From Steroidobacteraceae bacterium (GTDB lineage: Bacteria; Pseudomonadota; Gammaproteobacteria; Steroidobacterales; Steroidobacteraceae): a stretch of DNA of 32,000 nt. The number at the start of each line of letters is the position of its first letter. The stretch's first letter is position 1. Below, one piece after another: positions 8,920 to 30,020 of the stretch. Below the pieces are notes generated by a model. That model was not told the origin of the DNA. It did no database searches and was given only the letters and a program-made list of their open reading frames with translations. The stretch is from positions 117,129 to 149,128 of the forward strand of contig JBEKWA010000002.1 of assembly GCA_049513515.1 (NCBI GenBank), read 5' to 3'. A program made the translations under genes and the position numbers.

Positions 8920-10298
8920 CGGTTCATCGTGGGGCGCACGGCGAAAGCCCTGCGCCCCAGAAGAAACAGCGGCCAGCCGGTGAGCAGGATCGCGAAGCCC
9001 GCGAGCCCGATGCGCGGATCCACCGAGAATGCGCGCGCGGCCACGGCCAGCAAGCTGGCGATATACAAGACGGGCAACAGCGGATATCCGCGCATCCTGT
9101 AACCGCCTTCACCCGTGCGCCGGCGTCTCAAGACGAACAAGGTCGAGGCCACCGCCGCGATCGTGAGCGTATCGGTGAAGATGATGTAATCGAGCAGCTT
9201 CTCGAACGAGCCGAGCATGAACGCGGGCACGAGCATGGTCGCGGCGAAGAACGCGAGCCCGGCATCCTGAATCTGGGTGCGGGGATTGACTCGCAAAAAG
9301 GCGCGCGGCAGCACGCCGTCCTCGGCCATCGCGTAATAGCTGCGGGGCATTTGCAAAATCGTCGCGTTGACGAACCCGGCCGCGGAGAGAAAGACCGCGA
9401 CCGAGATCAGCGTCTCGCCGCCGGGACCGAAGGTCGCGCGCGCGAGCGCAGCGGCGGCGAGATCCGAGCGCGCGATGCCGCCGATGCCGAGCGCACGCTG
9501 ATAGCCGATGTTGAGCAGCAAGTAGAGCGCGATTACGACCAGCATCCCTCCCGCGATCGCCCTCGGAAAGCGACTCTTGGCATTCTTCAGATCGGCACCG
9601 AGATTCATGGTGAGCTGATAGCCGCCGTACGCGTAGAAGCACGGAATGAGCGCGGCGCTGAGCCGCAGCGCGAGAGGCGAAGCGGGCGCGACTCCCGCTC
9701 CGGCGGTGGCATGCGGCGCGAGCGCGATCGCGGTGACGGCGAGCCCCACGATCATCAGAATCTTCAGGCCGGACAACGCGTTCTGCGCGTGCGCGCCCGG
9801 CTTTATGCCGCGATAGTTCAGCGCGAGCAGCGCGAGCATGGTGCCGAGCGCGACGGCGAAGGATGCCTTCGGCGTCTGCCAGTGAGTCGGCAGCACGACG
9901 GGCACCAGAAAGTCTGCGCCGATGAAGGCGACTGCCGCGGCGCCCGCTCCCTGCATCAGGGTCTGTGCCCAGTTCAGCATGAACGCAGGTGTCGCGCCGT
10001 AGCAATCCGCGACCACGCGGTAATAGCCGCCGGCGCGCGGATAGCGCGATCCGATCTCGGCGAAGGTCAAGGCGCCGATGAGGCTGATGAGCCCCGCCGT
10101 GATCCAGGCTGCATAGAACACCGGCGTATCGCCCGCGCCGCGCGCGACGATGGCGGGGGTGCGGAAAATCCCGATGCCCACCACGAGGCTGAAGACCACC
10201 ATGGACACATCGAACGCGGAGAGCCGCGCCTCGATGGGTGTCGAGTCAGGAGCGGCACTCACGCAGTGCTTCCTCCAGCAGCGCCGCGAGATGCGCAA
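8916..10298 (-). CDS. APC-superfamily amino acid/polyamine permease
   Basis: The 460 aa protein is polytopic. TM1 carries the motif LSAFDVSMVVFSLVVGIGIFRTP, and TFAEIGSRYPRAGGYY is also present. The start is uncertain. The ATG at 10298 overlaps the upstream gene by 53 nt, and the in-frame GTG at 10262 overlaps it by 17 nt. Confidence 0.85.
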   Translation of the reverse strand: MRISRRCWRKHCVSAAPDSTPIEARLSAFDVSMVVFSLVVGIGIFRTPAIVARGAGDTPVFYAAWITAGLISLIGALTFAEIGSRYPRAGGYYRVVADCYGATPAFMLNWAQTLMQGAGAAAVAFIGADFLVPVVLPTHWQTPKASFAVALGTMLALLALNYRGIKPGAHAQNALSGLKILMIVGLAVTAIALAPHATAGAGVAPASPLALRLSAALIPCFYAYGGYQLTMNLGADLKNAKSRFPRAIAGGMLVVIALYLLLNIGYQRALGIGGIARSDLAAAALARATFGPGGETLISVAVFLSAAGFVNATILQMPRSYYAMAEDGVLPRAFLRVNPRTQIQDAGLAFFAATMLVPAFMLGSFEKLLDYIIFTDTLTIAAVASTLFVLRRRRTGEGGYRMRGYPLLPVLYIASLLAVAARAFSVDPRIGLAGFAILLTGWPLFLLGRRAFAVRPTMNR

Positions 10299-15885: not shown

Positions 15886-16272
15886 TCAGCGAGCGGGCGC
15901 GGAGAAATCCTGGATGGAAATGCCGAGAATCGATTCGACGCAGCGCCTGAATTCGGCCCGGTTCCATCGGGCGGTGCCCCGTCCGATGAGAGCGGAGACC
16001 TTGTCGAATTGGCTCTTGCTTATGTTGGTGACGCCCGCCACGACGACGCGCAAGCCCGGTGACGCCGGTACCGCGGCGACGAACACGGCGATCTGAAGAT
16101 CGAAGAATTCCGCAAATCGCGGCGAGGGGTTATCGCCGCGTTGCGCCCGTAGGAATGCGTCGATTTTCGGCTGGTTCGGCACGCGCCTGAGAAAACTGAG
16201 GCGTTCCGCGCTACTCGCGCAGTCGGGCAGGCTTGCCTCCTGAAATAGCAGATTGTGTCCGGTCTCGATCAC
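15886..16272 (-). CDS. hypothetical protein (128 aa) with a possible degenerate XRE-type HTH at the C-terminus
   Basis: This is a GTG-start ORF in a visibly lower-GC stretch. Its third codon positions are still GC-biased, which supports coding. The C-terminal SKSQFDKVSALIGRGTARWNRAEFRRCVESILGISIQDF loosely resembles a Cro/C1 HTH. I recognise no family. Confidence 0.4.
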   Translation of the reverse strand: MIETGHNLLFQEASLPDCASSAERLSFLRRVPNQPKIDAFLRAQRGDNPSPRFAEFFDLQIAVFVAAVPASPGLRVVVAGVTNISKSQFDKVSALIGRGTARWNRAEFRRCVESILGISIQDFSAPAR

Positions 16273-16372
16273 GGGAACCTCAAGCGACTAGCCCCGATAT
16301 TGATCGGAATGGACGCGAGTCTCAAGTCGCGCAGCAGCGCGGTCGCTCAGTGCGCCGCGAAGCGCGTCAGTG

Positions 16373-17467
16373 CTAATGCGGCAGCCGGATCACCAGCAAG
16401 TTGTTGGTCACATCGTCGACGACGGCGAAGTTCAAGGCGCCGTCCTCGTCCACGCGCGTGTCGATCCCGAATGCGCCGCCCTGGCTGGCATCCACGTCGT
16501 ACTCCCGGACGAAATCGCCCCAGCGGGTGAATTCGACGATCTCGCTCGGGTGCAGCGGATCCGCATTGACCGCATCTCCATTGACCGTCAGCAAGTGCCC
16601 ATTCGGGGCGAACCGCAGGGCGAGCGGGCCGCGTAGATGCTCATTGGCGAACACCACCGCTCCCTTGTCCTTCGCATTCGATCTGTGTTTCGCATTCGGC
16701 ACAGAATAGATCGCATTGTCGTTGGTCGAGGCCACGTACAGCGTATCGGTGCCTGCGTCGTAGGCGAGTCCCGTCGGCCCCAACACCACCGCCGCCGCAT
16801 TCGGGACGTGCGAATAGCCCTCGGCAATCGTCGTGATCTGCTCCAGGGTCACGTTGCTCGAGCCCACCGATACGTCGAGCCGGGAAACCGTACCGTTCAA
16901 CACGTTGGACACGAAGATATGAGCATAGCTGCCGAGGTCATCGATGGTGAGATCCCAGGGTCCGTCGAGAAACACCGGATCGGTCCATGTCTGGATCAGC
17001 TTGCCGTGTCGATCGATCACCTGCAGCGCGCCGCGACCTATCGTGGCGAATGTACCGTCCTTCGTCGACACGTTGCCCACGACGACAAATCCGCCGCGCA
17101 GCACGCCAAGCGCCGTCGAGAGCCCGGGAAGCTTGCTGGTGAAGAACGCGATCGCCGTGCCCGGCGGGGCTATCGGACCGTGCGCCGGCTGGCGAACGAT
17201 GGTGGTTCCCGTTCCCTGGACATTACCGCTGTCGTTGAAGTTCGCCACCAGAACATCGCCGGCGGCAATGCCGCCGCCGCCAGGGAACCCGTCGGGCACG
17301 AATGCGACCCCATAAGGGTTGACGTCGCCGTTCGCAGGGATGGTCGAGGAGTTGATCGCAGCCGGTAGGAATGCGTCCTGCGCGAAGGCTCCGGTGAGTC
17401 CTGCCGTCAAGGCCAAACCCACAGCAAGGGTGATCCTCGACGCATGAGACTTCATGTTCGCTTTCAT
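16373..17467 (-). CDS. secreted beta-propeller (NHL/SGL-like repeat) protein of unknown function
   Basis: A GAAGAGGGA Shine-Dalgarno precedes the start. The signal peptide is MKANMKSHASRITLAVGLALTAGLTGAFA/QDA. Repeated strand-turn blade-like segments follow (DVNPYGVAFVP, GPWDLTIDD, PTGLAYDAGTDTLYVAS, GPLALRFAPNGHLL). The N-terminal blade motif resembles that of the 21310-23376 protein. Confidence 0.75.
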   Translation of the reverse strand: MKANMKSHASRITLAVGLALTAGLTGAFAQDAFLPAAINSSTIPANGDVNPYGVAFVPDGFPGGGGIAAGDVLVANFNDSGNVQGTGTTIVRQPAHGPIAPPGTAIAFFTSKLPGLSTALGVLRGGFVVVGNVSTKDGTFATIGRGALQVIDRHGKLIQTWTDPVFLDGPWDLTIDDLGSYAHIFVSNVLNGTVSRLDVSVGSSNVTLEQITTIAEGYSHVPNAAAVVLGPTGLAYDAGTDTLYVASTNDNAIYSVPNAKHRSNAKDKGAVVFANEHLRGPLALRFAPNGHLLTVNGDAVNADPLHPSEIVEFTRWGDFVREYDVDASQGGAFGIDTRVDEDGALNFAVVDDVTNNLLVIRLPH

Positions 17468-17617
17468 GGGTATCCCTCTTCATTCATTGTTGACGAACGT
17501 TCGATGACGGAACTGGTGTCGGTAGGTGCCGCGACGGCGGCGAAAGGTTTTACCCGGGCTCAAAATAAATGGATGAGGCAGCCCTCGAAGGGCATCGAGC
17601 CCTATAATGCGGCGTCG

Positions 17618-18400
17618 ATGGATGCACAGGTGCTCATTTCAGCGAAATGGATCGCGCCCATTGCAGCGCTCGTCACGGTGCGTCTCGATCGCGGCGCCGT
17701 GCTCACGGTGCTGCTCGGCTTGATGACGCTGCCCTGTGTCGGCCGTGCGCAGGGCACGTGGAGCGGCTCCATCGGCGGCACCAGCAATTATGTTTACCGC
17801 GGCATCTCGCAGACCTATAACGGTGCCGCGCTGCAGCTCGGCGGCAGTTATCAAAGCCCGCTCGGCTGGTTTGCGGGGGCGTGGGGCTCGAACGTGAATC
17901 CCTATCCAGGCGGTGCGAGCTTCGAGGAACTCGACTTCTACGGCGGGCTGATCCGCTCCGTCGGCTCCGACTTCGCCGTCAAAGGCACGTACACCCACTA
18001 TTTGTACGTGCAGGATCCGCGACCCGCTCGTTACGACTACGACGAGATCGCCGTGAGCGTCGCCTACTTGGACGTGGTCGCGGCGACCGTATCCTATCAG
18101 CCGAACTACACATCTTATTCAGAGCTCGGCTTCGCCTATCGGCGTCCGGCAACTGCCTACGAGCTCACGGGCCGTTGGCCGCTGCGCTTCGGATTTGCGG
18201 CGACGGCCGGGGCAGGATACTACGATCTGCATCACCTTTTTGGGGTCGGCTACTGGGCCGGTGATGTCGGATTGGCATACGTCTACCGGCGCCTCACCCT
18301 GGGCGTCAGCCGCTTCTTCGCCGATACGACCGCGGCCACGCTCTACGAGGACGCGAGCGCCAATGGCAACTGGGCGGTTTCGGCGACCTGGCGCTTCTGA
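17618..18400 (+). CDS. TorF-family putative outer-membrane porin (Gcw_chp / TIGR02001-like)
   Basis: GTSNYVYRGISQTYNGAALQLGGSY...GAWGSNVN...ELDFYGG and the terminal ...WRF match my recollection of the TorF family. The start is uncertain. The ATG at 17618 lies only about 10 nt after a TATAAT box. The GTG at 17678 would give a cleaner signal peptide (VRLDRGAVLTVLLGLMTLPCVGRAQG). Confidence 0.7.
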   Translation: MDAQVLISAKWIAPIAALVTVRLDRGAVLTVLLGLMTLPCVGRAQGTWSGSIGGTSNYVYRGISQTYNGAALQLGGSYQSPLGWFAGAWGSNVNPYPGGASFEELDFYGGLIRSVGSDFAVKGTYTHYLYVQDPRPARYDYDEIAVSVAYLDVVAATVSYQPNYTSYSELGFAYRRPATAYELTGRWPLRFGFAATAGAGYYDLHHLFGVGYWAGDVGLAYVYRRLTLGVSRFFADTTAATLYEDASANGNWAVSATWRF

Positions 18401-18426
18401 CACAGGGGAGTTTTTGGTCGAAGGAT

Positions 18427-18452
18427 GAACCGACCGGGCGAGACGGGTTACT
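18427..18452 (+). promoter_or_regulatory. candidate ECF-type promoter (GAACC-N15-GTTACT) upstream of the sigma gene
   Basis: GAACC lies at 18427-18431 and GTTACT at 18447-18452, with exactly 15 nt between them. The same AACC-N15-GTTACT arrangement recurs at 21213-21238. An AAC-containing -35 element is typical of ECF promoters. Confidence 0.5.
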
Positions 18453-18500
18453 TACCCATGGTAGGTTGTGTCGGCGGCATGGTGCCCGGGAGCTCTTTTT

Positions 18501-19103
18501 TTGGAAGACTTCGAGTTGCGATCGAATCAATCCCCCGCGGTACGCACCGCGAACGACCGCGAACGACAGCTGATCTCCCGGATCGGCACCGGCGACCGGG
18601 ACGCGTTTCGCGAGCTCTACGTGCACTATCACAGGCGCCTGGCGCGATTTCTGACTCGCCTGACCCACCGCCAGGAGGACGCGGAGGAGATCATCAACGA
18701 TACGCTGTGGATCGTGTGGCAGCGCGCCGCGGAATTCCGCAATGCATCGCAGGTCTCGACGTGGATCATGGGCATCGCCTATCGGCGCGCGCTCAACATG
18801 ATCCGGCGCGCGGCGGCGCATGAGCGAGTCATGGCGCTGGAGAGCACCGAGGGGGAGGCGGCCGTCAACGATGCGGGGCAGACGACCGAGAATCGGCAGC
18901 TCCTGAATTACGCGCTTGCCCAGTTGCCCTTGGAGCAGCGCCTCGTACTCGAACTCACGTATTACCTGGATCATTCTTGCGAGGAGGTCGCCGAGATCAT
19001 GGAGTGCCCCGTGAATACGGTAAAGACGCGCATGTTCAACGCGCGGCGGAAGCTCCGGGCAATGCTGGCCGAGCACGGCGCAGAATGGGGGGCCGCTCCA
19101 TGA
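18501..19103 (+). CDS. ECF-subfamily RNA polymerase sigma-70 factor
   Basis: Region 2 is GDRDAFRELYVHYHRRLARFL...DAEEIINDTLWIVW and region 4 is LPLEQRLVLELTYYLDHSCEEVAEIMECPVNTVKTRMFNARRKLR. I prefer the TTG at 18501 as start because GGGAG lies 8 nt upstream and it falls downstream of the candidate promoter. The ORF-track GTG at 18468 is the alternative. Confidence 0.9.
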   Translation: MEDFELRSNQSPAVRTANDRERQLISRIGTGDRDAFRELYVHYHRRLARFLTRLTHRQEDAEEIINDTLWIVWQRAAEFRNASQVSTWIMGIAYRRALNMIRRAAAHERVMALESTEGEAAVNDAGQTTENRQLLNYALAQLPLEQRLVLELTYYLDHSCEEVAEIMECPVNTVKTRMFNARRKLRAMLAEHGAEWGAAP

Positions 19104-19786
19104 CCGTCGATCTGGAAGGCGCCCGCTGCGAGGAAGAGGCGGCCCGGCTCTTGCCGTGGTACCTCACCGGACGGTTGTCGGCCGCGGATCTCGAGCGCGT
19201 GTCGAGCCATCTGCAGCGCTGCGCAATCTGTCGCAACGATTTGGCGCACGAGCGTGCGGTGCAGGGGATTTTGAAGACCGATAACCGGATCGAATACGCA
19301 CCGCAGGCGAGTCTTGCGAAGATGTTCTCGCGCATCGACGAACTGGGTCGGGATGCTCCAACCGGGAGCAGTCCTGATCTCCCCCGAGCGTCCCCGCGCC
19401 GATTGCGCCCGGTGCAATGGCTGACCGCCGCGGTGCTAGTGCAGGCCGTCGCCCTCGGATGGCTGGGCGCGTCGTTGCGAGACCGGCCGCAGTCGGCCGT
19501 GCCGCCGGCGCAGTATCAGACGCTGTCGGCGGATCCCGTACCGCTGGCTCCCGGGCCGCACATCCGGGCAGTGTTCGCGCCGGCCATGACGCTCGCCGAG
19601 TTGAAGGCGCTCCTCTCATCGAACGACCTGACCATCGTGCGCGGTCCCAGCGAGGCGGGCGCTTACACGTTGGCTTCGACGCGCGCGATGCCCATGGGCA
19701 TCGAACCCGTCGTTGCGGCCCTGCGCACCGATGCGCGCGTGCTGTTCGTCGAAGCCGCCGTCAACGACACGCCGGCAGTGCGGTGA
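19100..19786 (+). CDS. zf-HC2 anti-sigma factor, single-pass membrane protein with a periplasmic C-terminal domain
   Basis: The ATG at 19100 overlaps the sigma stop as ATGA. The HC2 zinc motif is HLQRCAICRNDLAHE and the TM segment is VQWLTAAVLVQAVALGWLGASL. A periplasmic domain of about 90 aa follows (...TLAELKALLSSNDLTIVRGPSEAGAYTLA...). Confidence 0.8.
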   Translation: MTVDLEGARCEEEAARLLPWYLTGRLSAADLERVSSHLQRCAICRNDLAHERAVQGILKTDNRIEYAPQASLAKMFSRIDELGRDAPTGSSPDLPRASPRRLRPVQWLTAAVLVQAVALGWLGASLRDRPQSAVPPAQYQTLSADPVPLAPGPHIRAVFAPAMTLAELKALLSSNDLTIVRGPSEAGAYTLASTRAMPMGIEPVVAALRTDARVLFVEAAVNDTPAVR

Positions 19787-21042
19787 AAATTACGCCGCTC
19801 GGCGTCCTCCTCGCCGCCGCCGCGCTCGCCGGCTGCGCCGCGGTTCGCGCGCCGCGAGCGGACCTTCCGGCGGAGGTCCGCGGTGGCCCCGAGGGCTACG
19901 TCGTCGTTACCGTGAGAAACCCTCTGATCGGTCCCGGCGCGCACGCCGCATCTACCTCACGAGGCTATGACGCGGTGGGCGTGTACGGGGCAGGCAGCGT
20001 CGCCCGCGGAACCAGTCGGGCGCTCGCGGCCGATTATCATTTGCGCGAAGTGTCGAGCTGGCCGATTGCATTGCTCGGCGTGCATTGCCTGACGTACGCG
20101 CTGCCGAGCGGCGCGGATCGCGCACAACTACTCGCCGTTCTCACGCGTGATCCCCGAGTCGAGTCCGCGCAGCCGCTGCTCAGCTTCGAGACGGCATCCG
20201 GCGGCTATAACGATCCCTATGCCGATCTGCAAAACAACATACAACAAATGGCCGTACTCGAGGCTCAGGCCTTGAGTCGCGGCGCCAGCGTGCGAGTTGC
20301 GATCGTCGACACGGGCGTCGATGTGCGCCACCCGGACTTGCCCGCCAACGTCGTCGTGCGAAATTTCGTCGACGACGACACGGATGCATTTCAGGAAGAT
20401 GTTCATGGGACGGCAGTGGCGGGCGTGATTGCGGCGATTCCCAACAATGGGGTCGGCATCGCGGGCATCGCGCCGGACGTGCGTCTGTTCCTCTACAAGG
20501 CCTGCTGGCGAGCAGCCGCGACGGGAACCAAAGCGGCGTGCAATTCCTTCACGCTGGCACAAGCCCTGTCGGCTGCCATCGAAGCGCACGCCGACATCAT
20601 CAACTTGAGCCTCGCGGGCCCGAGCGACCCGCTGCTTACGCGTCTGATCGAGCGCGCCTCGGCAGCCGGCATCATAGTGGTGGGCGCCGTGCCGCCGGAC
20701 GGACTGCGTGACTCCTTCCCCACTAACATCGCCTCGGTGATCGCCGTCGATGCGCTGGAGAGCGGGCACACCAGCCCCGGTGTCTTGCGGGCTCCGGGCC
20801 GCGACGTGATGTCGCTCGCGCCGCGTGCGCATTACGACTTCTATTCGGGAAGTTCCCTTGCCACCGCAGAGGTGTCCGGCTTGGTGGCACTGCTGCGCGC
20901 GCAACGACCGCACTTGACGGCGCAGGATGCACGAGCGCTCCTGCTCGAGAGCGAGTCACCCGCGGATGCGGGCACCTCGCCGCCCAACGCCTGCGCCGCG
21001 CTCGAGTCGCTCGTGCACGGCAAGCGCTGCGCGAGCCGCTAG
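19783..21042 (+). CDS. S8 (subtilisin) family serine peptidase lipoprotein with an I9-like propeptide
   Basis: The GTG at 19783 overlaps the anti-sigma stop as GTGA. The lipobox is LLAAAALAG/C. The catalytic residues are Asp in AIVDTGVD, His in HGTAVAGVIAA and Ser in SGSSLATAEVSG. An N-terminal propeptide-like segment precedes the catalytic domain. Confidence 0.9.
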   Translation: MKITPLGVLLAAAALAGCAAVRAPRADLPAEVRGGPEGYVVVTVRNPLIGPGAHAASTSRGYDAVGVYGAGSVARGTSRALAADYHLREVSSWPIALLGVHCLTYALPSGADRAQLLAVLTRDPRVESAQPLLSFETASGGYNDPYADLQNNIQQMAVLEAQALSRGASVRVAIVDTGVDVRHPDLPANVVVRNFVDDDTDAFQEDVHGTAVAGVIAAIPNNGVGIAGIAPDVRLFLYKACWRAAATGTKAACNSFTLAQALSAAIEAHADIINLSLAGPSDPLLTRLIERASAAGIIVVGAVPPDGLRDSFPTNIASVIAVDALESGHTSPGVLRAPGRDVMSLAPRAHYDFYSGSSLATAEVSGLVALLRAQRPHLTAQDARALLLESESPADAGTSPPNACAALESLVHGKRCASR

Positions 21043-21097
21043 GACATTTACAAATAGCCGCAAGTCGCGGCCTCCACGTCACGACGCAGTTAGTACC

Positions 21098-21118
21098 CCG
21101 CGCGAGGCGCGCGGTTTT
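21098..21118 (+). terminator. rho-independent terminator after the S8 peptidase gene
   Basis: CCGCGCG-AGG-CGCGCGG forms a 7 bp all-GC stem and is followed by TTTT. Confidence 0.55.
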
Positions 21119-21212
21119 GCGGCAAGTCATGCTCGGCCTGCACGTGTCGCGGCGCCGTGAGTGATCGGATATCTCGCGGAAGTTCGCCGGCGGGACGAAA
21201 TATTTGCAGCGA

Positions 21213-21238
21213 AAACCCGACACCTTCGGTTCGTTACT
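21213..21238 (+). promoter_or_regulatory. candidate ECF-type promoter (AAACC-N15-GTTACT) upstream of the propeller-cytochrome lipoprotein gene
   Basis: AAACC lies at 21213-21217 and GTTACT at 21233-21238, with exactly 15 nt between them. It sits downstream of the 21098-21118 terminator and 72 nt upstream of the ATG at 21310. Confidence 0.5.
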
Positions 21239-21309
21239 CAGTTAGCGAAGACCGCACGGCGCGGATCGTTGCAATCGCACAAGACGCTGCGGCGTCGAGG
21301 ACACGAGGT

Positions 21310-23376
21310 ATGGTGTATCAATCAAAGTCGACGAGATCGGTTCTTAAATTCGCGCCGCCGGCGCTGATGCTCTTGCTGCTCGCGGCGTGCGGCGGCGACG
21401 GAGGAGGCTCGGGCTCCATGGCCGGCGGCGGCGGCGGTGGTGGTGGTGGTTACGGCGGCGGCGTTGCGGCCGCGGCGATCACCATTTCGCTGAGCAGCGC
21501 CAACATTCAAGTCGGGCAGAACACGACGCTCACCTGGTCGGTGACCAATGCCACCGCGTGCACGGCGAGCGGATCCTGGAGCGGGTCGGAATCCGTGACC
21601 GGGTCGAAAACGCTGTCGCCGACCGCGGCGGGCACGTACACGTACACGCTCATGTGCACGGGCAGCGGCGCGGCGGCGACCAAATCGACCACGCTGACGG
21701 TGGGCGCAGCCGCCGCGAGCAACGGGCCTTACACCTCGACCAGCCTGGTGGCCAACGCGGCGGGGAGTTCGGCACTCACGGTGGATGCCAATCTGGTAAA
21801 CCCGTGGGGTATCGTCTTCGCACCCAACGCATCGGTCTGGGTGGCCAACAACGGCAGCAGCACCTCGACCTTGTATGACGGCAGCGGCAACCCGCAACCG
21901 GCCACGTCTCCCTTGGTGGTGACATTCACCGCCAATGCCGGCCACCCCTTCGCGCCGACCGGCGTTGTCGCCAACGCGACGAGCGATTTCGTCGTGAGCT
22001 CGGGCGGCAAATCCGGCGCCGCGAGCTTCATCTACGTGGGTGAGGGCGGAACGATCGCGGGCTGGTCGTCCGCGGTCAATCCTGCCGCGGCGGTGACGGT
22101 GTACACGGATGCCGGCGGTGCGGAGTACACGGGAGCCGCGCTCGCCTCGAACGGCGGTCAAAATTACTTGTACGCGGCCGATTTCCACAACAACAAGATC
22201 GACGTGTTCAACGCGACGTTCGTGAAGCAGACGCCGTCGGCGAGCAGCTTCGCATTCGCCGATCCCAGCCTTCCCGCGGGATATGCACCGTTCGGCATTC
22301 AGGCGATCGCCAACGGCAGCGGCGGGGCGACGCAGATCTACGTGGCGTATGCGCAGCAGAAGGCGCCGGACAACTCGTTTGCCAGCATCGGAGCGGGATT
22401 GGGCCTCGTGGATGTATTCGACGCGAGCGGAACGTTCACCATGCGCTTGATCGCCACGGGCGGCGCACTGAACGCCCCCTGGGGCATCGCGCTCGCACCC
22501 GCGGACTTCGGACCACTCAGCAATGATCTCTTGGTCGGCAATCTCGGCGACGGGAAAATCAATGCTTTCGACGCGGCAAGCGGCAAATTGATCGGCCCGA
22601 TCAGTGACTCTCATTCCGATCCGATCGCAGTGCCGGGCCTCTGGGGCATCGCCTTCGGCAACGACAGCGCCAACCAGCCGCACAACACACTCTTTTTCGC
22701 CGCAGGCACGAATGACGGCAGCGGCGGTGAATACGGCCGCATCGACCCAGGCGCAACGCCGCCGACTCTGGACGGTACGGCGGCCGTGACGGTGATCGCC
22801 CCGAGCGCAACCGTGAGCGGCACGGTCGCGCTGACTGCGCAGGTGGGCAGCAGCGTCAGCGTCGAGCAAGTGGAATTCTTCGCCAACGGGAAAGCCATCG
22901 GGACGGCCGACGCGTCACCCTTCTCGGTTCAGTGGAATACCACGACCAGCGCCAATGGAACGGTAACCCTGACGGCGACCGCGAAAGAAGGGTATGGCAA
23001 GGTTGCCAATTCGGCTCCCGTCACGGTCACTGTCAACAACGCCGCCCCCGCCGCGACGCTGACGGAATTGCAAGCGCAGGTCTTCGGTCCCATTTGTTCC
23101 GGGTGCCATAACGGAGTGGGTGCCAGCCTGCCCGGTGTGCAGAACCTGACTTCAGCGGCGGCGACGTATGCATCTTTGGTGAACGTGCCGAGTATCGAGC
23201 AGCCGAACCTGCTACGCGTCAAGCCGGGCGATCCCACCGACAGTTACGTCATTCACAAGCTCGAGGGCCTGGCGGGCATCACGGGTGCGCGCATGCCGTT
23301 CGGCGGCCCCTATCTGTCGACCGCGACGATGAACCAAATCGAGTCGTGGATTGCCGCGGGCGCGCAGAACAACTAA
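21310..23376 (+). CDS. lipoprotein combining an Ig-like domain, a TIGR03118-like beta-propeller, a second Ig-like domain and a C-terminal Planctomycete-type cytochrome c (PSCyt1-like, CxxCH) domain
   Basis: The ATG at 21310 has a GAGG Shine-Dalgarno. The lipobox is LLLLAA/C with the Cys codon at 21388-21390, followed by a poly-Gly linker. An Ig-like module follows (TLTWSVTNATACTASGSWSG...YTYTLMCTG). The propeller spans about 21727-22750 (DANLVNPWGIVFAPNASVWVANNGSSTSTLYDG). A second Ig-like domain spans about 22780-23058. The tail spans 23059-23373, with the heme motif CSGCH at 23095-23109 in the context VFGPICSGCHNG...KPGDPTDSYVIHKL...ARMPFGGPYLS...IESWIAAGA. Confidence 0.8.
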   Translation: MVYQSKSTRSVLKFAPPALMLLLLAACGGDGGGSGSMAGGGGGGGGGYGGGVAAAAITISLSSANIQVGQNTTLTWSVTNATACTASGSWSGSESVTGSKTLSPTAAGTYTYTLMCTGSGAAATKSTTLTVGAAAASNGPYTSTSLVANAAGSSALTVDANLVNPWGIVFAPNASVWVANNGSSTSTLYDGSGNPQPATSPLVVTFTANAGHPFAPTGVVANATSDFVVSSGGKSGAASFIYVGEGGTIAGWSSAVNPAAAVTVYTDAGGAEYTGAALASNGGQNYLYAADFHNNKIDVFNATFVKQTPSASSFAFADPSLPAGYAPFGIQAIANGSGGATQIYVAYAQQKAPDNSFASIGAGLGLVDVFDASGTFTMRLIATGGALNAPWGIALAPADFGPLSNDLLVGNLGDGKINAFDAASGKLIGPISDSHSDPIAVPGLWGIAFGNDSANQPHNTLFFAAGTNDGSGGEYGRIDPGATPPTLDGTAAVTVIAPSATVSGTVALTAQVGSSVSVEQVEFFANGKAIGTADASPFSVQWNTTTSANGTVTLTATAKEGYGKVANSAPVTVTVNNAAPAATLTELQAQVFGPICSGCHNGVGASLPGVQNLTSAAATYASLVNVPSIEQPNLLRVKPGDPTDSYVIHKLEGLAGITGARMPFGGPYLSTATMNQIESWIAAGAQNN
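21424..21462 (+). repeat. in-frame trinucleotide tract (GGC)4(GGT)5 TAC (GGC)3 encoding G9-Y-G3
   Basis: I read this directly at 21424-21462. It lies just after the lipobox in the linker of the 21310-23376 protein. Confidence 0.9.
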
Positions 23377-23398
23377 CCCCGTGAGGGGCGGAGGCATC

Positions 23399-23428
23399 GA
23401 GGGCCCTGCGGGCAAGCGCAGGGCCCTC
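23399..23428. terminator. strong hairpin between convergent genes, a candidate bidirectional terminator
   Basis: GAGGGCCCTGCG-GGCAAG-CGCAGGGCCCTC forms a perfect 12 bp stem. It lies between the stop at 23376 (plus strand) and the stop at 23447 (minus strand). The flanking T/A runs are weak. Confidence 0.6.
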
Positions 23429-23446
23429 TTCGGCGGGGCAGCGCGC

Positions 23447-24199
23447 TCACGTATCTCGGCTCGCGAGGCCGAGTACCGCATAGCGCACCAGTTGCGTGGC
23501 GGTGCTGAGATTTAGCTTCCGCTTGATGCTGTGTCGGTGCGATTCCACCGTCTTGATGCTCAAGTGGAGCGCTTGTGCGGTTTCCCGGGTGGTCATGCCC
23601 CTGCCGATCATGAGCAAAATCTGCAATTCACGATTGCTCAGCCGATCGAGCGGATCGTCGGATCTGGGCGCCGGCCGGCCGGCGTACTTCTGCAGCATGT
23701 TGCGACGAACGGTCTCCGAGACGTAGATATGGCCCTCGAGAACACACCGCAACGCGGTCAGGAACTCCTCGGTGGATGACTCCTTCATGATGTATCCGTT
23801 TGCACCGGTGGAGAGCATGCGCTCCGCGTAAAAGGCTTCGTCCTCTGCGGACAGCACGAGAATCCGCAGCTCCGGATGATGCGCGCGAGCGAACCGGACG
23901 AGATCGATGCCGTCGCCGTGCTTCGAGCTGATGTCGCAGATCAGCCCATCGGGCTGCAAGTCGTCCAGGGCGCTTCGCATGTCGTCGGCTGTCTCCGCTT
24001 CTCCGCAGACCTCGAGATCGTCCTGGTTTTCCAGGATGCGGCGCAGGCCCTGGCGCACGATGGGATGGTCATCGACGATCAGCACGCGGCGCACGGCGGA
24101 TTTCAGCCGAGCGCAACCTCGGATTTCCAAGTCGAGCAACTCGGCGTTATTGCGGCAGCTTTTGCGCCCGAGGTCCGCCGGCGCTGGGATCTTTCTCAT
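23447..24199 (-). CDS. LuxR/FixJ-family response regulator (REC plus HTH)
   Basis: The REC domain has VLIVDDHP, the acceptor Asp in LICDIS, and LVLSA and GYIMK. The LuxR HTH is LSNRELQILLMIGRGMTTRETAQALHLSIKTVESHRHSIKRKL. The ATG at 24199 overlaps the EAL stop as ATGA and adds 35 aa ahead of the REC domain. The GTG at 24094 (VRRVLIVDD) is an alternative start. Confidence 0.85.
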   Translation of the reverse strand: MRKIPAPADLGRKSCRNNAELLDLEIRGCARLKSAVRRVLIVDDHPIVRQGLRRILENQDDLEVCGEAETADDMRSALDDLQPDGLICDISSKHGDGIDLVRFARAHHPELRILVLSAEDEAFYAERMLSTGANGYIMKESSTEEFLTALRCVLEGHIYVSETVRRNMLQKYAGRPAPRSDDPLDRLSNRELQILLMIGRGMTTRETAQALHLSIKTVESHRHSIKRKLNLSTATQLVRYAVLGLASRDT

Positions 24200-24951
24200 G
24201 AATCGGTCTCAGGAGCCAGCATCACCGACAGCGCCGCCACGAGTCCGCTGCGCGTCTCGGTCCGATCCGCGAGCACCGTCAGGCCGACGCCACGGGCGAG
24301 GGAGACGATCGCGCGCACGATCGATTCATCGGTGCGGCTGATGGCCAAGTCCCTGATGAAGCTGCGATCGATCTTGAGCTTGTCGATCGAGAACCGCCGC
24401 AGGTAGCTCAAGCTGGAGTAACCCGTACCGAAGTCATCGATCGCAACGCCCACTCCCATCCTGCGCAGTTGCTTCAACACACCCGCGGATTCCTCAGGAT
24501 TGGTCATGAGCGCGCTCTCGGTCAATTCGATCTCCAAGGCGCGCGCGTCGAGATCCGCATCGGCGAGCGCGGAGCGAATCATCTGCAGGATGTTCTCGTG
24601 TCTGAACTGGGCGGCCGACAAGTTGACTGCCAAGGGAAGCGAGGAGCCCATGTCGACTTGCCAGCGGCGCGCCTGGCGGCACGCCTCGCGCAGCACCCAC
24701 TCCCCGAGCGGAATGATCAATCCGGTATCTTCGGCAAGCGAGATGAACGAGCTCGGCCCGATGACACCCTTGGTCGGATGCCGCCAGCGCAGCAGCGCTT
24801 CCGCGGAAACGATTTTCCCGGTCTTGATCGAGAGCTCGGGTTGATAGTAGAGCTCGAATTCTCCCGCCGTCATCGCGCGCCGCAGGTCGCTTTCGAACGC
24901 CAGACGATCCTGCATCGAATCCGTCATCCCGGGTTGAAAGAAAAGCATCAA
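24196..24951 (-). CDS. stand-alone EAL-domain protein, a putative c-di-GMP phosphodiesterase or binder with a short, atypical C-terminus
   Basis: Motifs present are ELYYQP, EALLRW, AVNLSA, EIELTES, DDFGTGYSSLSYL and KIDRSF. ADRTET replaces the usual AEGVET. The protein stops 19 aa later, without the terminal GC...QG(Y/F) segment. The start is TTG at 24951 or ATG at 24948, neither with a clear Shine-Dalgarno. Confidence 0.8.
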   Translation of the reverse strand: MMLFFQPGMTDSMQDRLAFESDLRRAMTAGEFELYYQPELSIKTGKIVSAEALLRWRHPTKGVIGPSSFISLAEDTGLIIPLGEWVLREACRQARRWQVDMGSSLPLAVNLSAAQFRHENILQMIRSALADADLDARALEIELTESALMTNPEESAGVLKQLRRMGVGVAIDDFGTGYSSLSYLRRFSIDKLKIDRSFIRDLAISRTDESIVRAIVSLARGVGLTVLADRTETRSGLVAALSVMLAPETDS

Positions 24952-25233
24952 CGGAGCTCAGCAGGACGACGCAGCTGCGAGCGCCCGCGGAAGAGACCTG
25001 CAGCGCGAGCTTCTGCGTGGTGTGTGCGCCAGCAGAATCGCCACGAGGGCCGCCAGTGGCACTGCATAGGGTTCGCTGGTGAGCACCGTCATCGATAAAG
25101 TCCGTGATGCGTCCTTGCCGTGAGCTCGCCAAGGTAGCGTCGAGTGGCAGCCGGCGACATCGAGAAGACTGGGTATCGGGGTCGGGGAAACCCTGTAGGG
25201 GAGACCGGATGGAGCCCAACCGCGGGCGCGAGC

Positions 25234-25881
25234 TCAGGGCTCGATGATGTTGTTGCGGATGGCGTAGCGTACGAGCTCGGGGAGCGACCCGAGGCCCAGT
25301 TTGCGCATTATGTTGCTACGGTGCGTCTCGGCGGTCTTCACGCTGATATTCAGCGCCCGCGCGACGTCTTTATTGCTGTTGCCTTCGACCAGCAGCTGCA
25401 CGATTTCCCGCTCCCGGCCGGAAAGCGTCTGCGCCGCGCTCGGCGCACTCGCCTCGTTGCGCAGATACCCGTCCATGACCACGCGTGCCACGCTCGAAGT
25501 GAAAAATGAGCCGCCTTCGAGCAGCGCCTGCAATGCCACTACCAGTATCCGTCCGGCATCGGATTTCAAAACGTATCCCCGCGCACCGACGCTCAACACT
25601 TCCCGCACGAGTTGCTCGGACTCGTGCGCGGTCAAAATGAGAATGCGCGTGCTGGGCTCGGCCGAGAGAATCCGGCGAGCCGCCTCGAGCCCATTGAGCT
25701 CCGGCATCGTCAGATCGAGCACCACGAGATCCGGCTTGAACTCGGCCGCGGATGCCACCGCGTCTCTGCCATTGGCCACCTCGGCAACGACGACCCAGCC
25801 GGGTACCTCGGACAGCTCCGCGACCAGTCCGCGCCTCAAGAGCTCATGGTCGTCGGCGATGAGTATGCGCGCGGGCTTCAT
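25234..25881 (-). CDS. NarL/FixJ-family response regulator
   Basis: This is the 25234..26364 ORF trimmed to MKPARILIADDHELLRRGL (215 aa). The ATG at 25881 overlaps the kinase stop as ATGA. The acceptor Asp lies in LVVLDLTMPELNG. The HTH is LSGREREIVQLLVEGNSNKDVARALNISVKTAETHRSNIMRKL. Confidence 0.9.
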   Translation of the reverse strand: MKPARILIADDHELLRRGLVAELSEVPGWVVVAEVANGRDAVASAAEFKPDLVVLDLTMPELNGLEAARRILSAEPSTRILILTAHESEQLVREVLSVGARGYVLKSDAGRILVVALQALLEGGSFFTSSVARVVMDGYLRNEASAPSAAQTLSGREREIVQLLVEGNSNKDVARALNISVKTAETHRSNIMRKLGLGSLPELVRYAIRNNIIEP

Positions 25882-27935
25882 GTCGAAACGGCCGGCGGGG
25901 GCTGCCCGATGTACAAGGTGCTGCGGACACGGGTCCCCCTGCTCGTGGATTCGACAGAGAGCGTCCCGCCGATCTGACGCATGCGCTCGCGCATACCCGC
26001 TAACCCGACTCCCAGCAGCGGACCGCTTCCCGGGGTCGCGGGGTCGCCCGCGCGAGGTAGTCCACGGCCGGCATCCTCGACCTCGAGCATGACGCTGTCG
26101 GATTGCACCTTGAGTCGAATGGTCACCCAGGGACTTGCGGCGTGTCGATGGACATTCGTGAGCGCCTCCTGGGCGACCCTGAACAGGCAGAGCTCGCTGT
26201 CGCGCGGCAGCCGGTCCATGGTCTGCGGCAGATCGAGGCGTACCTCGACCGCGCTGCGCTGTCGAAACCCGTCCGCCAGCCAGCGAAGTGCGCTGAGTAG
26301 CCCCAACTCGTCGAGCAAGGGCGGATGGAGGAGGTAGGACGCCGTCCTGATTTCCGTCGAGCACTGCGTCGCCAGACGCGCGCAGTGCTCGAGCAGCTCC
26401 CGGCGGGCCGCCGTGGCCGATCCCGTGTCGTGCATCAGCCGCGCGAGGCCGAGTTCCAGGGCGGCGAGCGTCTGGCCGGTCGAGTCGTGCAGATCACGTC
26501 CGATACGCCGCCGCTCTTCGTCCTGCGACCGCATCAATTCGGCCGACAGCAGTTGCAGATCGTGCTCAGCGCGCTTGCGCGCGGTCTGATCCCGGACCAC
26601 GGCGAGGGCGAGCACGGTGTTGCCGTCCTTGATGGTCGAGAGCCCCACCTCCGCGGGGAAGCTCATGTCGTTGTCCAGCCGCCGATGGAGCCATTCGAAG
26701 CTCGTGCCCCCTTCACGCAGGGCAGTCTCGATTCGCGCGCGCGCGAGATCCTCGGAACGCTGCCCGTCGGGTTGATGCTCCGGCGAAAGGTCCCACGGGG
26801 AGAGCCCTATCGCTTCGCGCTCGCTTTGCAGGCCGAACATCCGGATCGCCGTGCGATTGGCATCCACGAACCGATCGCCCTCTAGGAGGAATACGCTGAA
26901 CTGCGCGTTATTGAACAGCGTCCTGTAATGATGATCCCGGCGGCGCAGCGCGCGCAGGGAGTGGTTCAGGAGCGCCGTCATGCCGAGCACCAGCGCGCTG
27001 AATGCCGCGGTCGTCCCCACGGCCACTCGCCGCCGGCTGCGCCAGGGAGCGAGCGCGGCGTCCCGGGACTGGCCGGCCATGATGTAAATGGGATAGCCGT
27101 TCATGAGATCGTACGCGTAGATCATGTCCTTTTTGGCGACCGATCCATAGCCCTCGACGATGCCTTCATTGCCCTGGGCAATTGCACGTTTGAACAGGTC
27201 ATTCGAGGCGAGATTGGCGCCCGCGGGTAGCTCCAGGGTACCCGGCACTCGGACCAGCAGCGTGCCGTCGCTCGCAATCAACCCCATGGATGCGATCTGA
27301 TCGCTCGATTGCCGATAGAGTCCCTCAAAACCGTCAAAACTGAATAGCGCGCCGGCCCACAGCGTCAGATCCTTGCCCCACGTCACCCGCTGAGCGATCG
27401 GAATCACTGACATATCAGGGCGCTCTGGATCGACGATCGGCGAGCCCACCCACGTGCCGCTCGATGCGGGCACTTGCGCTACAGTCAGCCACTCGGGCGT
27501 TAGCCGGCCGCCGAATGCACCATCGCGGGTCGCGAGCGCAAATCGCTCGCCGTCGGTGAGAAACAAGGAGCGCACGTAGCTTCCGCCCGCGAGCTGCTTG
27601 CGCAGCGTCGTGATGATCTCCAAGCGGCTGGCGAGAATCAGCCCACCCTCCGCCTGCAGCTCATTGGCGCCTGCAACCGCTGCGCCTACCCCGTCATTGA
27701 GCATGGCCAGCGTGCCCGCTTGCAGAGTCGCCGCGACACTGCGGAGTCGCGTGCGCTCCTCATCGAGGGTCTGCTCGTAGTCTCCATGGATACGGGAGCC
27801 GGTGTATGCCCAGCCGATGCCGATCACCACCGCGGCGTACGCGAGCAGCACCCAGTCGAGCGCCGGCGAGGTACCCAGACGTAGCAGACCACGGCGGTCG
27901 GCCCGCGGCGCACCCACGGAATTTTTGCCTGCCAC
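25878..27935 (-). CDS. membrane sensor histidine kinase (periplasmic Cache-like domain, PAS, HisKA_3, HATPase)
   Basis: The GTG start has a GGGAG Shine-Dalgarno. Two TM segments flank a periplasmic region of about 270 aa. A PAS segment follows (YRTLFNNAQFSVFLL...). The HisKA_3 box is DEERRRIGRDLHDSTGQ and the ATPase motif is EALTNVHRHA...GVGLAGMRERM. Confidence 0.9.
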   Translation of the reverse strand: MAGKNSVGAPRADRRGLLRLGTSPALDWVLLAYAAVVIGIGWAYTGSRIHGDYEQTLDEERTRLRSVAATLQAGTLAMLNDGVGAAVAGANELQAEGGLILASRLEIITTLRKQLAGGSYVRSLFLTDGERFALATRDGAFGGRLTPEWLTVAQVPASSGTWVGSPIVDPERPDMSVIPIAQRVTWGKDLTLWAGALFSFDGFEGLYRQSSDQIASMGLIASDGTLLVRVPGTLELPAGANLASNDLFKRAIAQGNEGIVEGYGSVAKKDMIYAYDLMNGYPIYIMAGQSRDAALAPWRSRRRVAVGTTAAFSALVLGMTALLNHSLRALRRRDHHYRTLFNNAQFSVFLLEGDRFVDANRTAIRMFGLQSEREAIGLSPWDLSPEHQPDGQRSEDLARARIETALREGGTSFEWLHRRLDNDMSFPAEVGLSTIKDGNTVLALAVVRDQTARKRAEHDLQLLSAELMRSQDEERRRIGRDLHDSTGQTLAALELGLARLMHDTGSATAARRELLEHCARLATQCSTEIRTASYLLHPPLLDELGLLSALRWLADGFRQRSAVEVRLDLPQTMDRLPRDSELCLFRVAQEALTNVHRHAASPWVTIRLKVQSDSVMLEVEDAGRGLPRAGDPATPGSGPLLGVGLAGMRERMRQIGGTLSVESTSRGTRVRSTLYIGQPPPAVST

Positions 27936-28028: not shown

Positions 28029-30020
28029 TCATCCGCCGGCACGCAGCTCCGCGCTCAAGGATTGCAAGAGGGATTCGAGGGTGTCGGGATCGATGGGCTT
28101 GGTCAAATGGTGGCTGAAACCGGCGGAAAACGCGCGTTGCTTGTCCGATTCCTGACCCCAGCCGGTCACGGCGACGAGTGCCGTTCTGCGGCCCCACGGC
28201 GCGGCCTTGATATTCGCGGCCACCTCGTAGCCGTCGATGTCGGGCAGACCGATGTCGGTCACGACGACGTGCGGCCGAGTCTTCGCCGCGATGGCGAGCG
28301 CCTCGTGACCGGTATAGGCCGTCTGTACGGAGTGGCCAGACAGTTCCAGCAAGGCCGAGCAAGTATCCGCGGCATCGCGGTTGTCGTCGACGACCAGCAC
28401 CTTGAGGCCGCCCCCGTCGACGGGCGGATCCTCATCCGCTTGTGCATCGGTATCGGTGCTTTTGCCGGCGCCCGCCGGGATGGTCACGATGAACTCGCTG
28501 CCGAGTCCCGGGCCGGCGCTGCGTGCCTCGACTCGACCGCCGTGCAAATCCACCACACCGCGCGCCAGTGCGAGGCCGATTCCGAGGCCGCCTTCGGAGT
28601 GGTTCACGACCGTCGAGTCCTGCGCAAACATCGTGAACAACCGGGGCATCATGTCCGTCGAGATGCCCATTCCGTTGTCGCGCACCGACACGATGACCTC
28701 GTTGTCGATCTGCGCGGCGCACAGCTCGATATGGCCGCCCGGGTCGGTGTACTTGGCCGCATTGATGAGTAGATTGGAGAATACCTGCGCCAGACGCACG
28801 GAGTCGGCAACGAGCCTGACCGCCTGCTTGGGCAGGTCCAGCGACAGGTCGTGGCCCTTGGCGTCCAGGATCGGGCGCGCCGCCTCGATGGCGGTTCCAA
28901 GCACGACGGTCAACTCCGTATCGGCGCGTTTCAGCTCGAGCATGCCGCGCGTGATGCGCGACACATCGAGCAGATCATCCAGCAAGCGGCTCATGTGAGC
29001 GACCTGGCGCTCGATGATCTCCTCTGCCCGTCTTTGTTGCTCGGCGGTGCGATCGGACTTCCTGGCCGTGGCGAGGGCGTAGCGAATCGGCGCGAGCGGA
29101 TTGCGCAGCTCGTGGGCGAGGAGTGCCATGAACTCGTCCTTGCGGCGATCCGCCTCGCGCAATGCCTGCTCGCTCTCTTGCAGAGCTTCATCGGCTTCTT
29201 TTCGCTCTGAAATGTCGCGGGCGATTTTCGAGGCGCCGATGATGGTACCGCGCGGATCGCACACCGGGGAGACGCTCACCGAGACGGGAATGCGCCGCCC
29301 GTCTTTAGTCAGCCGAATGGTGTCGAAGTGTTCGACTCGCTCACCGCGGCGTACTCGGTCGAGTATGTGGCGTTCCTCCGCATACATCTCCGGCGGAATG
29401 ATCAGCGTGATCGACTGACCGACCGCCTCCTCGGCCGCGTACCCGAAGATCCGCATCGCGCCCGCATTCCAGGATTGGATCCGACCGTCGAGGTTCTTGC
29501 TGACGATGGCGTCCTCCGAGGACTCCACGATCGCGGCGAGCTGGGCAGCCGTCCGCTCCGCGTTCCTTTGCGGACCGATGTCGCGAGCGATCTTCGACGC
29601 GCCGACGATGGTGCCGCTCGCGTCGCGAATGGGTGAGACCGTGATGGAGAGCTGCAGCCGGTGACCGTCCTTGCGCACGCGAGTGGTCTCGAAGTGGTCG
29701 ATGCGCTCGCCGCGCCTCAACCGGGCCAGGATATGCCGCTCTTCGTCGTGCAGCTCGGCCGGAATGAGCGTCTTAATGGACTTTCCGATAATCTCCTCCG
29801 GCTCATAGCCGAAGAGCCGCACCGCGCCTGCATTCCACGAGGTGATGATCCCGTCGAGCGTCTTACTGAGGATGGCATCGTCGCTGGAATCCACGATGGC
29901 GGCGAGTCGCGCGAGGTGAACCGCATCGCTGAGGTCGCCTGTCACGACGAGGCCGGCTGGCGCGACGAGCCCGCTTGTCGCGACGCGGACCGAGGTTACT
30001 TTCGGGGGGCTTGCGCTCAT
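28029..30020 (-). CDS. hybrid sensor histidine kinase (PAS-PAS-HisKA-HATPase-REC)
   Basis: There are two tandem PAS units. The H-box is FMALLAHELRNPLAPI. The N and G boxes are NLLINAAKYT and GGLGIGLALARG. The C-terminal REC has VLVVDDNRD and VVVTDIGLPDIDG. The ATG at 30020 overlaps the upstream stop as ATGA. Confidence 0.92.
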   Translation of the reverse strand: MSASPPKVTSVRVATSGLVAPAGLVVTGDLSDAVHLARLAAIVDSSDDAILSKTLDGIITSWNAGAVRLFGYEPEEIIGKSIKTLIPAELHDEERHILARLRRGERIDHFETTRVRKDGHRLQLSITVSPIRDASGTIVGASKIARDIGPQRNAERTAAQLAAIVESSEDAIVSKNLDGRIQSWNAGAMRIFGYAAEEAVGQSITLIIPPEMYAEERHILDRVRRGERVEHFDTIRLTKDGRRIPVSVSVSPVCDPRGTIIGASKIARDISERKEADEALQESEQALREADRRKDEFMALLAHELRNPLAPIRYALATARKSDRTAEQQRRAEEIIERQVAHMSRLLDDLLDVSRITRGMLELKRADTELTVVLGTAIEAARPILDAKGHDLSLDLPKQAVRLVADSVRLAQVFSNLLINAAKYTDPGGHIELCAAQIDNEVIVSVRDNGMGISTDMMPRLFTMFAQDSTVVNHSEGGLGIGLALARGVVDLHGGRVEARSAGPGLGSEFIVTIPAGAGKSTDTDAQADEDPPVDGGGLKVLVVDDNRDAADTCSALLELSGHSVQTAYTGHEALAIAAKTRPHVVVTDIGLPDIDGYEVAANIKAAPWGRRTALVAVTGWGQESDKQRAFSAGFSHHLTKPIDPDTLESLLQSLSAELRAGG

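Follow-up and report, generated by a model that had tools for sequence, protein, structure and literature searches.

We analyzed a 32,000-nucleotide (nt) stretch of DNA from a Steroidobacteraceae bacterium (contig JBEKWA010000002.1 of assembly GCA_049513515.1, forward-strand positions 117,129 to 149,128; hereafter the window, position 1 being its first letter) and focused on a bipartite motif, AACC-N15-GTTACT, that lies once upstream of a gene for an extracytoplasmic function (ECF) sigma factor (copy 1) and once upstream of a gene for a lipoprotein with a TIGR03118 beta-propeller (copy 2). Comparison with orthologous loci makes it very probable that both copies are promoters used by RNA polymerase in association with the ECF sigma factor of gene 18501-19103. 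In refined form, the sites provide a promoter model, TGAACC-N15-GGTAC-N-TAC, and a first outline of the regulon of an ECF sigma clade, unstudied so far, that is widespread among Gammaproteobacteria of soil and peat. The predicted elements of the two promoters are the following.

18426-18431, + strand: -35 element TGAACC of the sigma-operon promoter; its six bases are each 85-97% conserved across 48 species
18447-18455, + strand: -10 region GTTACTTAC of the sigma-operon promoter; consensus GGTAC-N-TAC, with GTTACT as its first six bases
21212-21217, + strand: -35 element AAAACC (degenerate TGAACC) of the lipoprotein-gene promoter; AACC is invariant in the window and loci L001, L002 and L003
21233-21241, + strand: -10 region GTTACTCAG of the lipoprotein-gene promoter; the window, L001, L002 and L003 all agree in TCGTTACTCAGT, and L081 has the same -10 box

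Two copies of a bipartite motif in the window

A preliminary description, made from the letters of this DNA, had reported GAACC (18427-18431), 15 nt and GTTACT (18447-18452) as copy 1, and AAACC (21213-21217), 15 nt and GTTACT (21233-21238) as copy 2, both on the + strand, and the sequence reads exactly so. A search of both strands of the 32 kb returns exactly two matches to AACC-N15-GTTACT (18428-18452 and 21214-21238, both +). None of 100 shuffles reaches two matches, but this naive test overstates significance, the pattern having been defined from the two copies themselves, and it was therefore set aside in favor of a corrected test and of matrices derived from other species. When the regions 18401-18500 and 21043-21309 are shuffled with dinucleotide composition preserved, a shared bipartite word of 4+6 bases with the same spacer of 14-19 nt arises in 6.5% of trials, and in 0.27% if AAC is required in the first word. 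Taken alone, the coincidence of two copies is thus suggestive and not decisive.

GTTACT itself occurs six times in the window, on the + strand at 8334, 18447, 21233 and 29995 and on the - strand at 3730 and 24417; of the additional copies listed in the preliminary description, the one at 29995 is correctly placed, the one given as 8335 belongs at 8334, and the two on the - strand had been missed, so that the total is six and not four. The two copies do share an identical GTTACT as described, yet this identity is partly coincidental, since the T at the second position is a minority variant (11%) of the consensus GGTAC-N-TAC. Likewise, the -10 element had been located correctly but drawn too short: it spans 9 nt rather than 6 and extends three bases further (..TAC). 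Both copies have AAC in the -35 element and a spacer of 15 nt. Compared with the classical CGT of ECF -10 elements, copy 2 reads CGTTAC and copy 1 GGTTAC; the GT is common to CGT, and the C is not conserved. Conservation at orthologous loci, named at the outset as a check on the motif, was examined and found for both copies, and it supports the original reading of both as ECF-type promoters.

A conserved footprint precedes the sigma gene

Comparative analysis made use of 80 loci, one per species, which were retrieved via alignment of sigma homologues and are designated here by L numbers. They derive mostly from Steroidobacteraceae and Nevskiaceae genome bins, encode sigma factors with 50-88% identity to that of the window, and contribute 14.6 kb of DNA per genome to the scans. 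An initial pattern, GAAC-N17-[GT][AT]AC, matched upstream of the sigma gene at a constant distance in 48 loci, and from these we built a sigma-promoter matrix with a maximum score of 28.7 bits. Copy 1 scores 26.6 bits of this maximum and is the top match in the window.

The motif, TGAACC-N15(16)-GG(T/C)AC-N-(T/C)AC, is found at a fixed distance before the sigma orthologue in 74 of the 78 species with enough upstream sequence, with a spacer of 15 nt in 68 species, 16 nt in 6 and 14 nt in none. Across the 48 loci the consensus is TGAACC-N15-GG(T/A)AC-N-(T)AC, and the boxes hold about 1-2.3 bits of information per position, whereas no position of the spacer or flanks exceeds 0.5 bit. The near-invariant -10 positions are G24, A27, C28, A31 and C32, of which G24, A31 and C32 are not imposed by the search pattern; the T before GAAC, likewise not imposed, is 95% conserved. 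The AAC trinucleotide (A5, A6, C7) is conserved at 97% in the 48 sigma promoters and at 93% in 21 promoters of target genes (see below). More distant species carry drifted forms such as GGCAC and GCAACCTTT. The GTTACT of the window stands in register with GGTACN, and its T at the second position is common to L002-L004 and L008. From the motif end to the sigma start codon we count 45 nt in the window and 41-46 nt in the orthologues.

Three of the four loci without the motif (L074-L076) have a similar sigma gene and lack both the porin and the S8 protease genes found in the window; with both missing, they do not represent the same system. L063 has no porin gene and retains the motif before sigma, which argues that the motif belongs to sigma. 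On the strength of these comparisons, copy 1 is almost certainly a sigma-dependent promoter.

The site before the lipoprotein gene

Copy 2 reaches 6.3 bits on the sigma-promoter matrix, the eighth-best of the 64,000 positions in the window. Used as sole judge of targets this matrix was rejected: target promoters are free in the last -10 base and in the T before GAAC and so score too low on it, and copy 2 would have been dismissed. A target matrix was derived from 21 sites upstream of TIGR03118 genes in other species only, with the window genome excluded; as tblastn at 1e-8 missed several TIGR03118 homologues, it was replaced by phmmer on translations of open reading frames (ORFs). The four top positions of 64,000 on the target matrix are 18423+ (22.5 bits), 21121- (19.0), 17554- (16.4) and 21209+ (13.7), the last of these being copy 2, and the next match has 9.4 bits. 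The chance of such a score in the 268-nt region that holds copy 2 is about 0.003-0.007 (about 0.003 with reversed-sequence nulls).

The four closest relatives retain copy 2 with a changed spacer, as GAGAACC-N15-GTTACTCAG in L001 and L003 and AAAACC-N15-GTTACTCAG in L002 and L081. Its -10 region resembles the GGTACTCAT or GTTACTCAT before the TIGR03118 genes of L011-L020. TIGR03118 genes are in fact preceded by a target-specific flavor of the -10 region, GGTACTCA(T/C/G), which explains the final base of copy 2. The order of S8 gene, site and TIGR03118 gene recurs in L002, L006, L007, L008, L061 and the Nevskia clade, including Nevskia soli DSM 19509. Directly before the lipoprotein start codon, a 26-nt block, GACGCUGCGGCGUCGAGGACACGAGG (window 21282-21307), is invariant in four species (window, L001, L002 and L003) and contains a small hairpin and the ribosome-binding site; folds of the lipoprotein 5' untranslated region are not above shuffles (z about 0). 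In our assessment copy 2 is likely a sigma-dependent promoter too, weaker than copy 1 and of the same class.

The motif precedes recurrent families of predicted targets in other species

Outside the sigma-upstream regions of the 80 loci, and relative to a second-order Markov null, sites of at least 17 bits are in large excess (35 observed vs 0.2 expected), as are those of at least 12 bits (62 vs 4.2), and sites of 6.3-9 bits show no enrichment (35 vs 32). At nearly all strong sites, a same-strand ORF of at least 70 aa begins within about 110 nt downstream. In 6 further species a site of 18.6-28.7 bits stands before a TIGR03118 protein whose family was confirmed by NCBIfam, with near-perfect sites in L031 (28.7 bits), L057 (27.0) and L027 (27.0). 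Among about 30 TIGR03118 homologues in sigma loci, about 20 are immediately preceded by a site that scores 9 bits or more. Other recurrent site-bearing families are homologues of the 364-aa protein encoded at 16373-17467 in the window, and lipoproteins with the same C-terminal CxxCH domain as the window lipoprotein, either alone or fused to CHRD-like repeats.

A sample assembled independently of the sigma loci provides a second view. From 80 metagenomic lipoprotein homologues chosen by protein similarity alone, 60 had enough upstream DNA; a site of at least 12 bits lies near the predicted start in 31 of these 60, compared with none of 60 same-size control regions inside the gene. One large metagenomic clade uses TAAACCTTT-N12-GGCACTTAC, and AAACC-type -35 elements are common there, which makes the A before AACC in copy 2 compatible with the motif.

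We note that consensus-grade sites also precede genes of families absent from the window. These are B12-binding radical SAM genes (L036, L045, L051 and L058), genes for outer-membrane-like CxxCH proteins (L048 and L051), and the gene of a protein of about 145 aa directly after S8 (L024, L025 and L028).

Gene organization of the cluster

The genes around the two copies, and the hairpin between the last two of them, are listed below.

16373-17467, - strand: secreted 364-aa protein of no family; signal peptide in the translation, no above-threshold Pfam or NCBIfam match
about 17618-18400, + strand: TorF-like porin (Gcw_chp/TIGR02001), by Pfam and NCBIfam
18501-19103, + strand: ECF sigma factor, 200 aa, TTG start; Pfam Sigma70_r2, r4_2 and Sigma70_ECF; Shine-Dalgarno GGGAG at 18488-18492
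19100-19786, + strand: anti-sigma factor of the zinc-binding (ZAS) type with one transmembrane helix; Pfam zf-HC2, NCBIfam anti-sigma
19783-21042, + strand: S8 subtilase lipoprotein, last gene of the sigma operon; Pfam Peptidase_S8 (3e-30), lipobox LAGC
21098-21118, + strand: terminator-like hairpin CCGCGCG-AGG-CGCGCGG followed by UUUU; fold of -16.1 kcal/mol
21310-23376, + strand: lipoprotein with an Ig-like N-terminal domain, TIGR03118 beta-propeller, Big_7 and a C-terminal CxxCH domain; NCBIfam, Pfam Big_7

The stop and start codons of sigma and anti-sigma overlap in ATGA and those of anti-sigma and S8 in GTGA; the three genes therefore form one operon, in which the anti-sigma gene is translationally coupled to sigma, and the + strand cluster has no further 5' regions. 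The layout originally described for the two copies consequently holds, with copy 1 between the porin stop (18400) and the sigma TTG at 18501, and copy 2 between the S8 stop (21042) together with the hairpin and the lipoprotein start ATG at 21310. The fold of the hairpin at 21098-21118 is not above shuffles (z = -0.44), and it is not among the results of a strict terminator scan.

A database search with the sigma protein retrieves an identical 200-aa protein (P0001) and many 200-aa homologues. The translation of the anti-sigma gene shows C10...H37-x3-C41-x2-C44. The cassette of porin, sigma, anti-sigma and S8 genes (window 17618-21042; loci L001-L073) is kept in about 70 of the 80 species, including the cultured Nevskia soli DSM 19509 (L071), and the S8 gene follows sigma and anti-sigma in about 68 of the 80. 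This constancy of protease and porin suggests that they have a part in signaling.

The lipoprotein matches TIGR03118 over residues 141-479 with 308 bits, well above the NCBIfam cut-off of 79.95. Its C-terminal part, labeled a cytochrome in the preliminary description, contains CSGCH, but the best Pfam match there is only Cytochrome_CBB3 (E = 0.099), and a stand-alone homologue of this part matches PSCyt1 with E = 0.14. The CxxCH domain comprises ~90 aa (F-x-P-I-C-x-x-C-H ... RVKPGDP-x-x-SY ... MP-x-GGP; window 23080-23373) and recurs in several predicted regulon members, where it is found alone, after TIGR03118 propellers and after CHRD-like repeats; additional instances are L028 2249-3094 and, in L065, the - strand gene behind a site at 4001. 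After the lipobox cysteine, the lipoprotein of the window has a glycine-rich low-complexity run (GGDGGGSGSMAGGGGGGGGGYGGG, window 21385-21450), with similar runs in the homologues of L050, L053 and L065. The 364-aa protein gives only faint hints of an SGL/arylesterase propeller in Pfam and NCBIfam (E about 0.03).

A third and a fourth site in the window

Matrix scans bring out two more sites, both on the - strand.

17551-17522, - strand: third site, AAAACC-N15-GGCACCTAC, with the ATG of the divergent gene 16373-17467 about 55 nt downstream
21118-21089, - strand: fourth site, AAAACC-N15-GGTACTAAC, directed antisense into the S8 gene and sigma operon; second-best in the window on both matrices

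For the third site, the sigma-promoter matrix gives 9.2 bits and the target matrix 16.4 bits, the third rank in the window on the latter. Orthologous sites of 11-22 bits precede the same gene in L001-L003, L006-L011, L015, L017 and L018, and an adjacent CCGACAC is common to the window and L001-L003. The gene 16373-17467 is therefore a probable third target, and since a site of the same class precedes it, the local regulon would comprise at least three units. The two-promoter regulon of the preliminary description does not stand, given this site and the additional one on the - strand.

The fourth site scores 15.3 bits on the sigma-promoter matrix and 19.0 bits on the target matrix. It overlaps the terminator-like hairpin, and its -35 element is the complement of the terminator U-tract. 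The same arrangement is seen elsewhere only in L002 (about 9574-9613) and L008 (about 9601-9640), in each case 20 nt from the + strand site. The fourth site could serve as a promoter for antisense feedback, be a relic, or match by chance with help from the terminator.

A model of the regulon and its alternatives

In the model that we favor, copy 1 would act as the positively autoregulated promoter of the operon encoding sigma, the ZAS anti-sigma and the S8 lipoprotein protease, and copy 2, of the same class and weaker, as the promoter of the TIGR03118 propeller/CxxCH lipoprotein gene, which would be a separate transcription unit behind the terminator-like hairpin. Transcription would start at about 18460 and at about 21247, respectively. 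The membrane anti-sigma would hold the sigma factor until an envelope signal releases it, and the TorF-like porin and S8 protease of the cassette may take part in the releasing signal. Free sigma factor would then raise the expression of its own operon (feedback) and of the secreted target proteins.

Several observations weigh against this model. Copy 2 mismatches the sigma-promoter consensus at three near-invariant positions, with A for T and A for G in TGAAC and G for the final C, its 6.3 bits fall in the range without enrichment on the sigma-promoter matrix (35 observed vs 32 expected), and its bin on the target matrix is enriched weakly (23 vs 18). Moreover, good conservation in the four close relatives extends over the whole stretch upstream of the lipoprotein gene, so that conservation there is not specific to the boxes. 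One may thus suppose that only copy 1 is a real sigma-dependent promoter and that copy 2 is a decayed or chance match kept by shared ancestry, the lipoprotein gene being transcribed from another promoter or by read-through from S8. Such read-through is conceivable because the hairpin after S8 folds no better than shuffles and failed the strict terminator scan. However, distant homologues and the independent metagenome sample have clear sites at the same place, AAACC-type -35 elements prevail in a large clade of these genes, and copy 2 ranks fourth of 64,000 positions on a matrix blind to the window genome. In addition, no sigma-70-type promoter was found in 17000-24500, and Rfam shows no family in 16000-24000 at E up to 1. 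We consider it rather improbable that copy 1 is the only promoter of the pair.

The motif might, on the other hand, be functional and read by a different factor, either an ECF paralogue or a DNA-binding regulator that recognizes two boxes. The case as a whole is built from comparative sequence analysis, which ties the motif to this protein indirectly, and a further ECF paralogue of the genome could also recognize it. Such a second paralogue of the ECF sigma does lie a few kb from the cassette in L033 (9646-10206, 48% identity) and L040 (12355-12870, 30%), which bears on cross-recognition. Against a different factor, in 74 of 78 species the motif is tied to the sigma orthologue's own 5' region, it is missing from L074-L076, and its geometry is that of ECF promoters (AAC, a fixed spacer of 15-16 nt, constant distance and orientation to the start codon). 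The -35 variants also change together at sigma and target promoters, the variant (GAACC or CAACC) agreeing between the two promoters of a genome in 68 of 80 pairs, although this co-variation traces to few independent evolutionary events, mainly in the Nevskia clade. A reader other than the sigma factor of 18501-19103 is very improbable in our view.

A further-reaching extension of the favored model, which we regard as doubtful, would make the cassette an uncharacterised envelope-signaling device of soil Steroidobacteraceae and Nevskiaceae, in which protease and porin take part in releasing a sigma factor that controls a dedicated set of secreted lipoproteins with TIGR03118 propellers and CxxCH domains, with a sigma-dependent antisense promoter at 21118-21089 (- strand) as a negative feedback on the operon in the window lineage.

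Relation to known ECF and anti-sigma systems

The published hallmarks of ECF systems are an AAC in the -35 element, a co-transcribed anti-sigma factor and positive autoregulation, with -35 elements such as GGAACTT for E. coli RpoE and ATTGAAACCTTT for B. subtilis SigW (PMC8103513). The system described here resembles autoregulated ECF promoters in its -35 element built around AAC, its fixed spacer, and its promoter before the sigma/anti-sigma operon, from which positive feedback is implied; it also resembles such systems in the additional motif copies before a few envelope or secreted proteins. The -35 element of the Nevskia clade, GCAACCTTT, is close to the SigW box, and that of the window is TGAACC. 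The -10 region, short and conserved, fits in part only and is a further point against the proposed reading: GGTAC-N-TAC has 9 nt with two TAC units, and is neither the textbook CGT nor TCTGA.

Structurally studied ECF sigma factors are only distant relatives. The best match is the P. aeruginosa sigma-H/AlgU-type chain 6in7_B (E = 3e-17), and E. coli RpoE follows with 2e-14. Among NCBIfam models the sigma protein passes no equivalog cut-off, the best being PRK12515 with 132 bits vs a cut-off of 236.

The anti-sigma factor is similar to those of the ZAS systems RsrA-SigR and ChrR-SigE in its N-terminal H-x3-C-x2-C, its weak matches to the zf-HC2, RsrA and ChrR models, and its co-transcription with sigma. 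Unlike RsrA and ChrR, it is membrane-anchored, has a periplasmic C-terminal domain without known family, and is encoded between an S8 protease gene that follows and a TorF-like porin gene that precedes the sigma/anti-sigma pair. To our knowledge, neither RsrA nor ChrR has this gene context of S8 protease and TorF-like porin.

It is standard practice to predict ECF target promoters from sigma genes that regulate themselves (PMC7826278), and the present analysis follows the same logic as that ECF classification, in that a bipartite motif over-represented before orthologous sigma genes is then found before their neighbors. The main text of the classification (PMC7826278) describes no group with an S8 peptidase or TorF-like porin context and mentions neither Steroidobacter nor Nevskia, though the classification may already list a motif for this sigma clade. 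Our literature search returned nothing on the clade, on TGAACC in connection with ECF sigma factors, or on the regulation of TIGR03118 proteins, and as far as we found no member has been studied experimentally.

The arrangement is that of a standard autoregulated ECF sigma factor with a membrane anti-sigma and local targets, and as such will not surprise a specialist. What it adds is the predicted link from one regulator to proteins of unknown function, namely the TIGR03118 propellers, a CxxCH domain that Pfam does not recognize and the family-less 364-aa secreted protein. Experiments are feasible, as both cassette and motif are present in the cultured Nevskia soli DSM 19509 (L071), where the sites of the sigma promoter and of the TIGR03118 gene lie at 6918 and 9684, respectively.

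Genes downstream of the lipoprotein

Downstream of the lipoprotein gene, the - strand of the window (23447-27935) carries genes for a pair of LuxR-type response regulators, for an EAL phosphodiesterase and for a PAS histidine kinase, none of them with an associated motif copy. The first LuxR-type regulator and the EAL gene are syntenic in L002.

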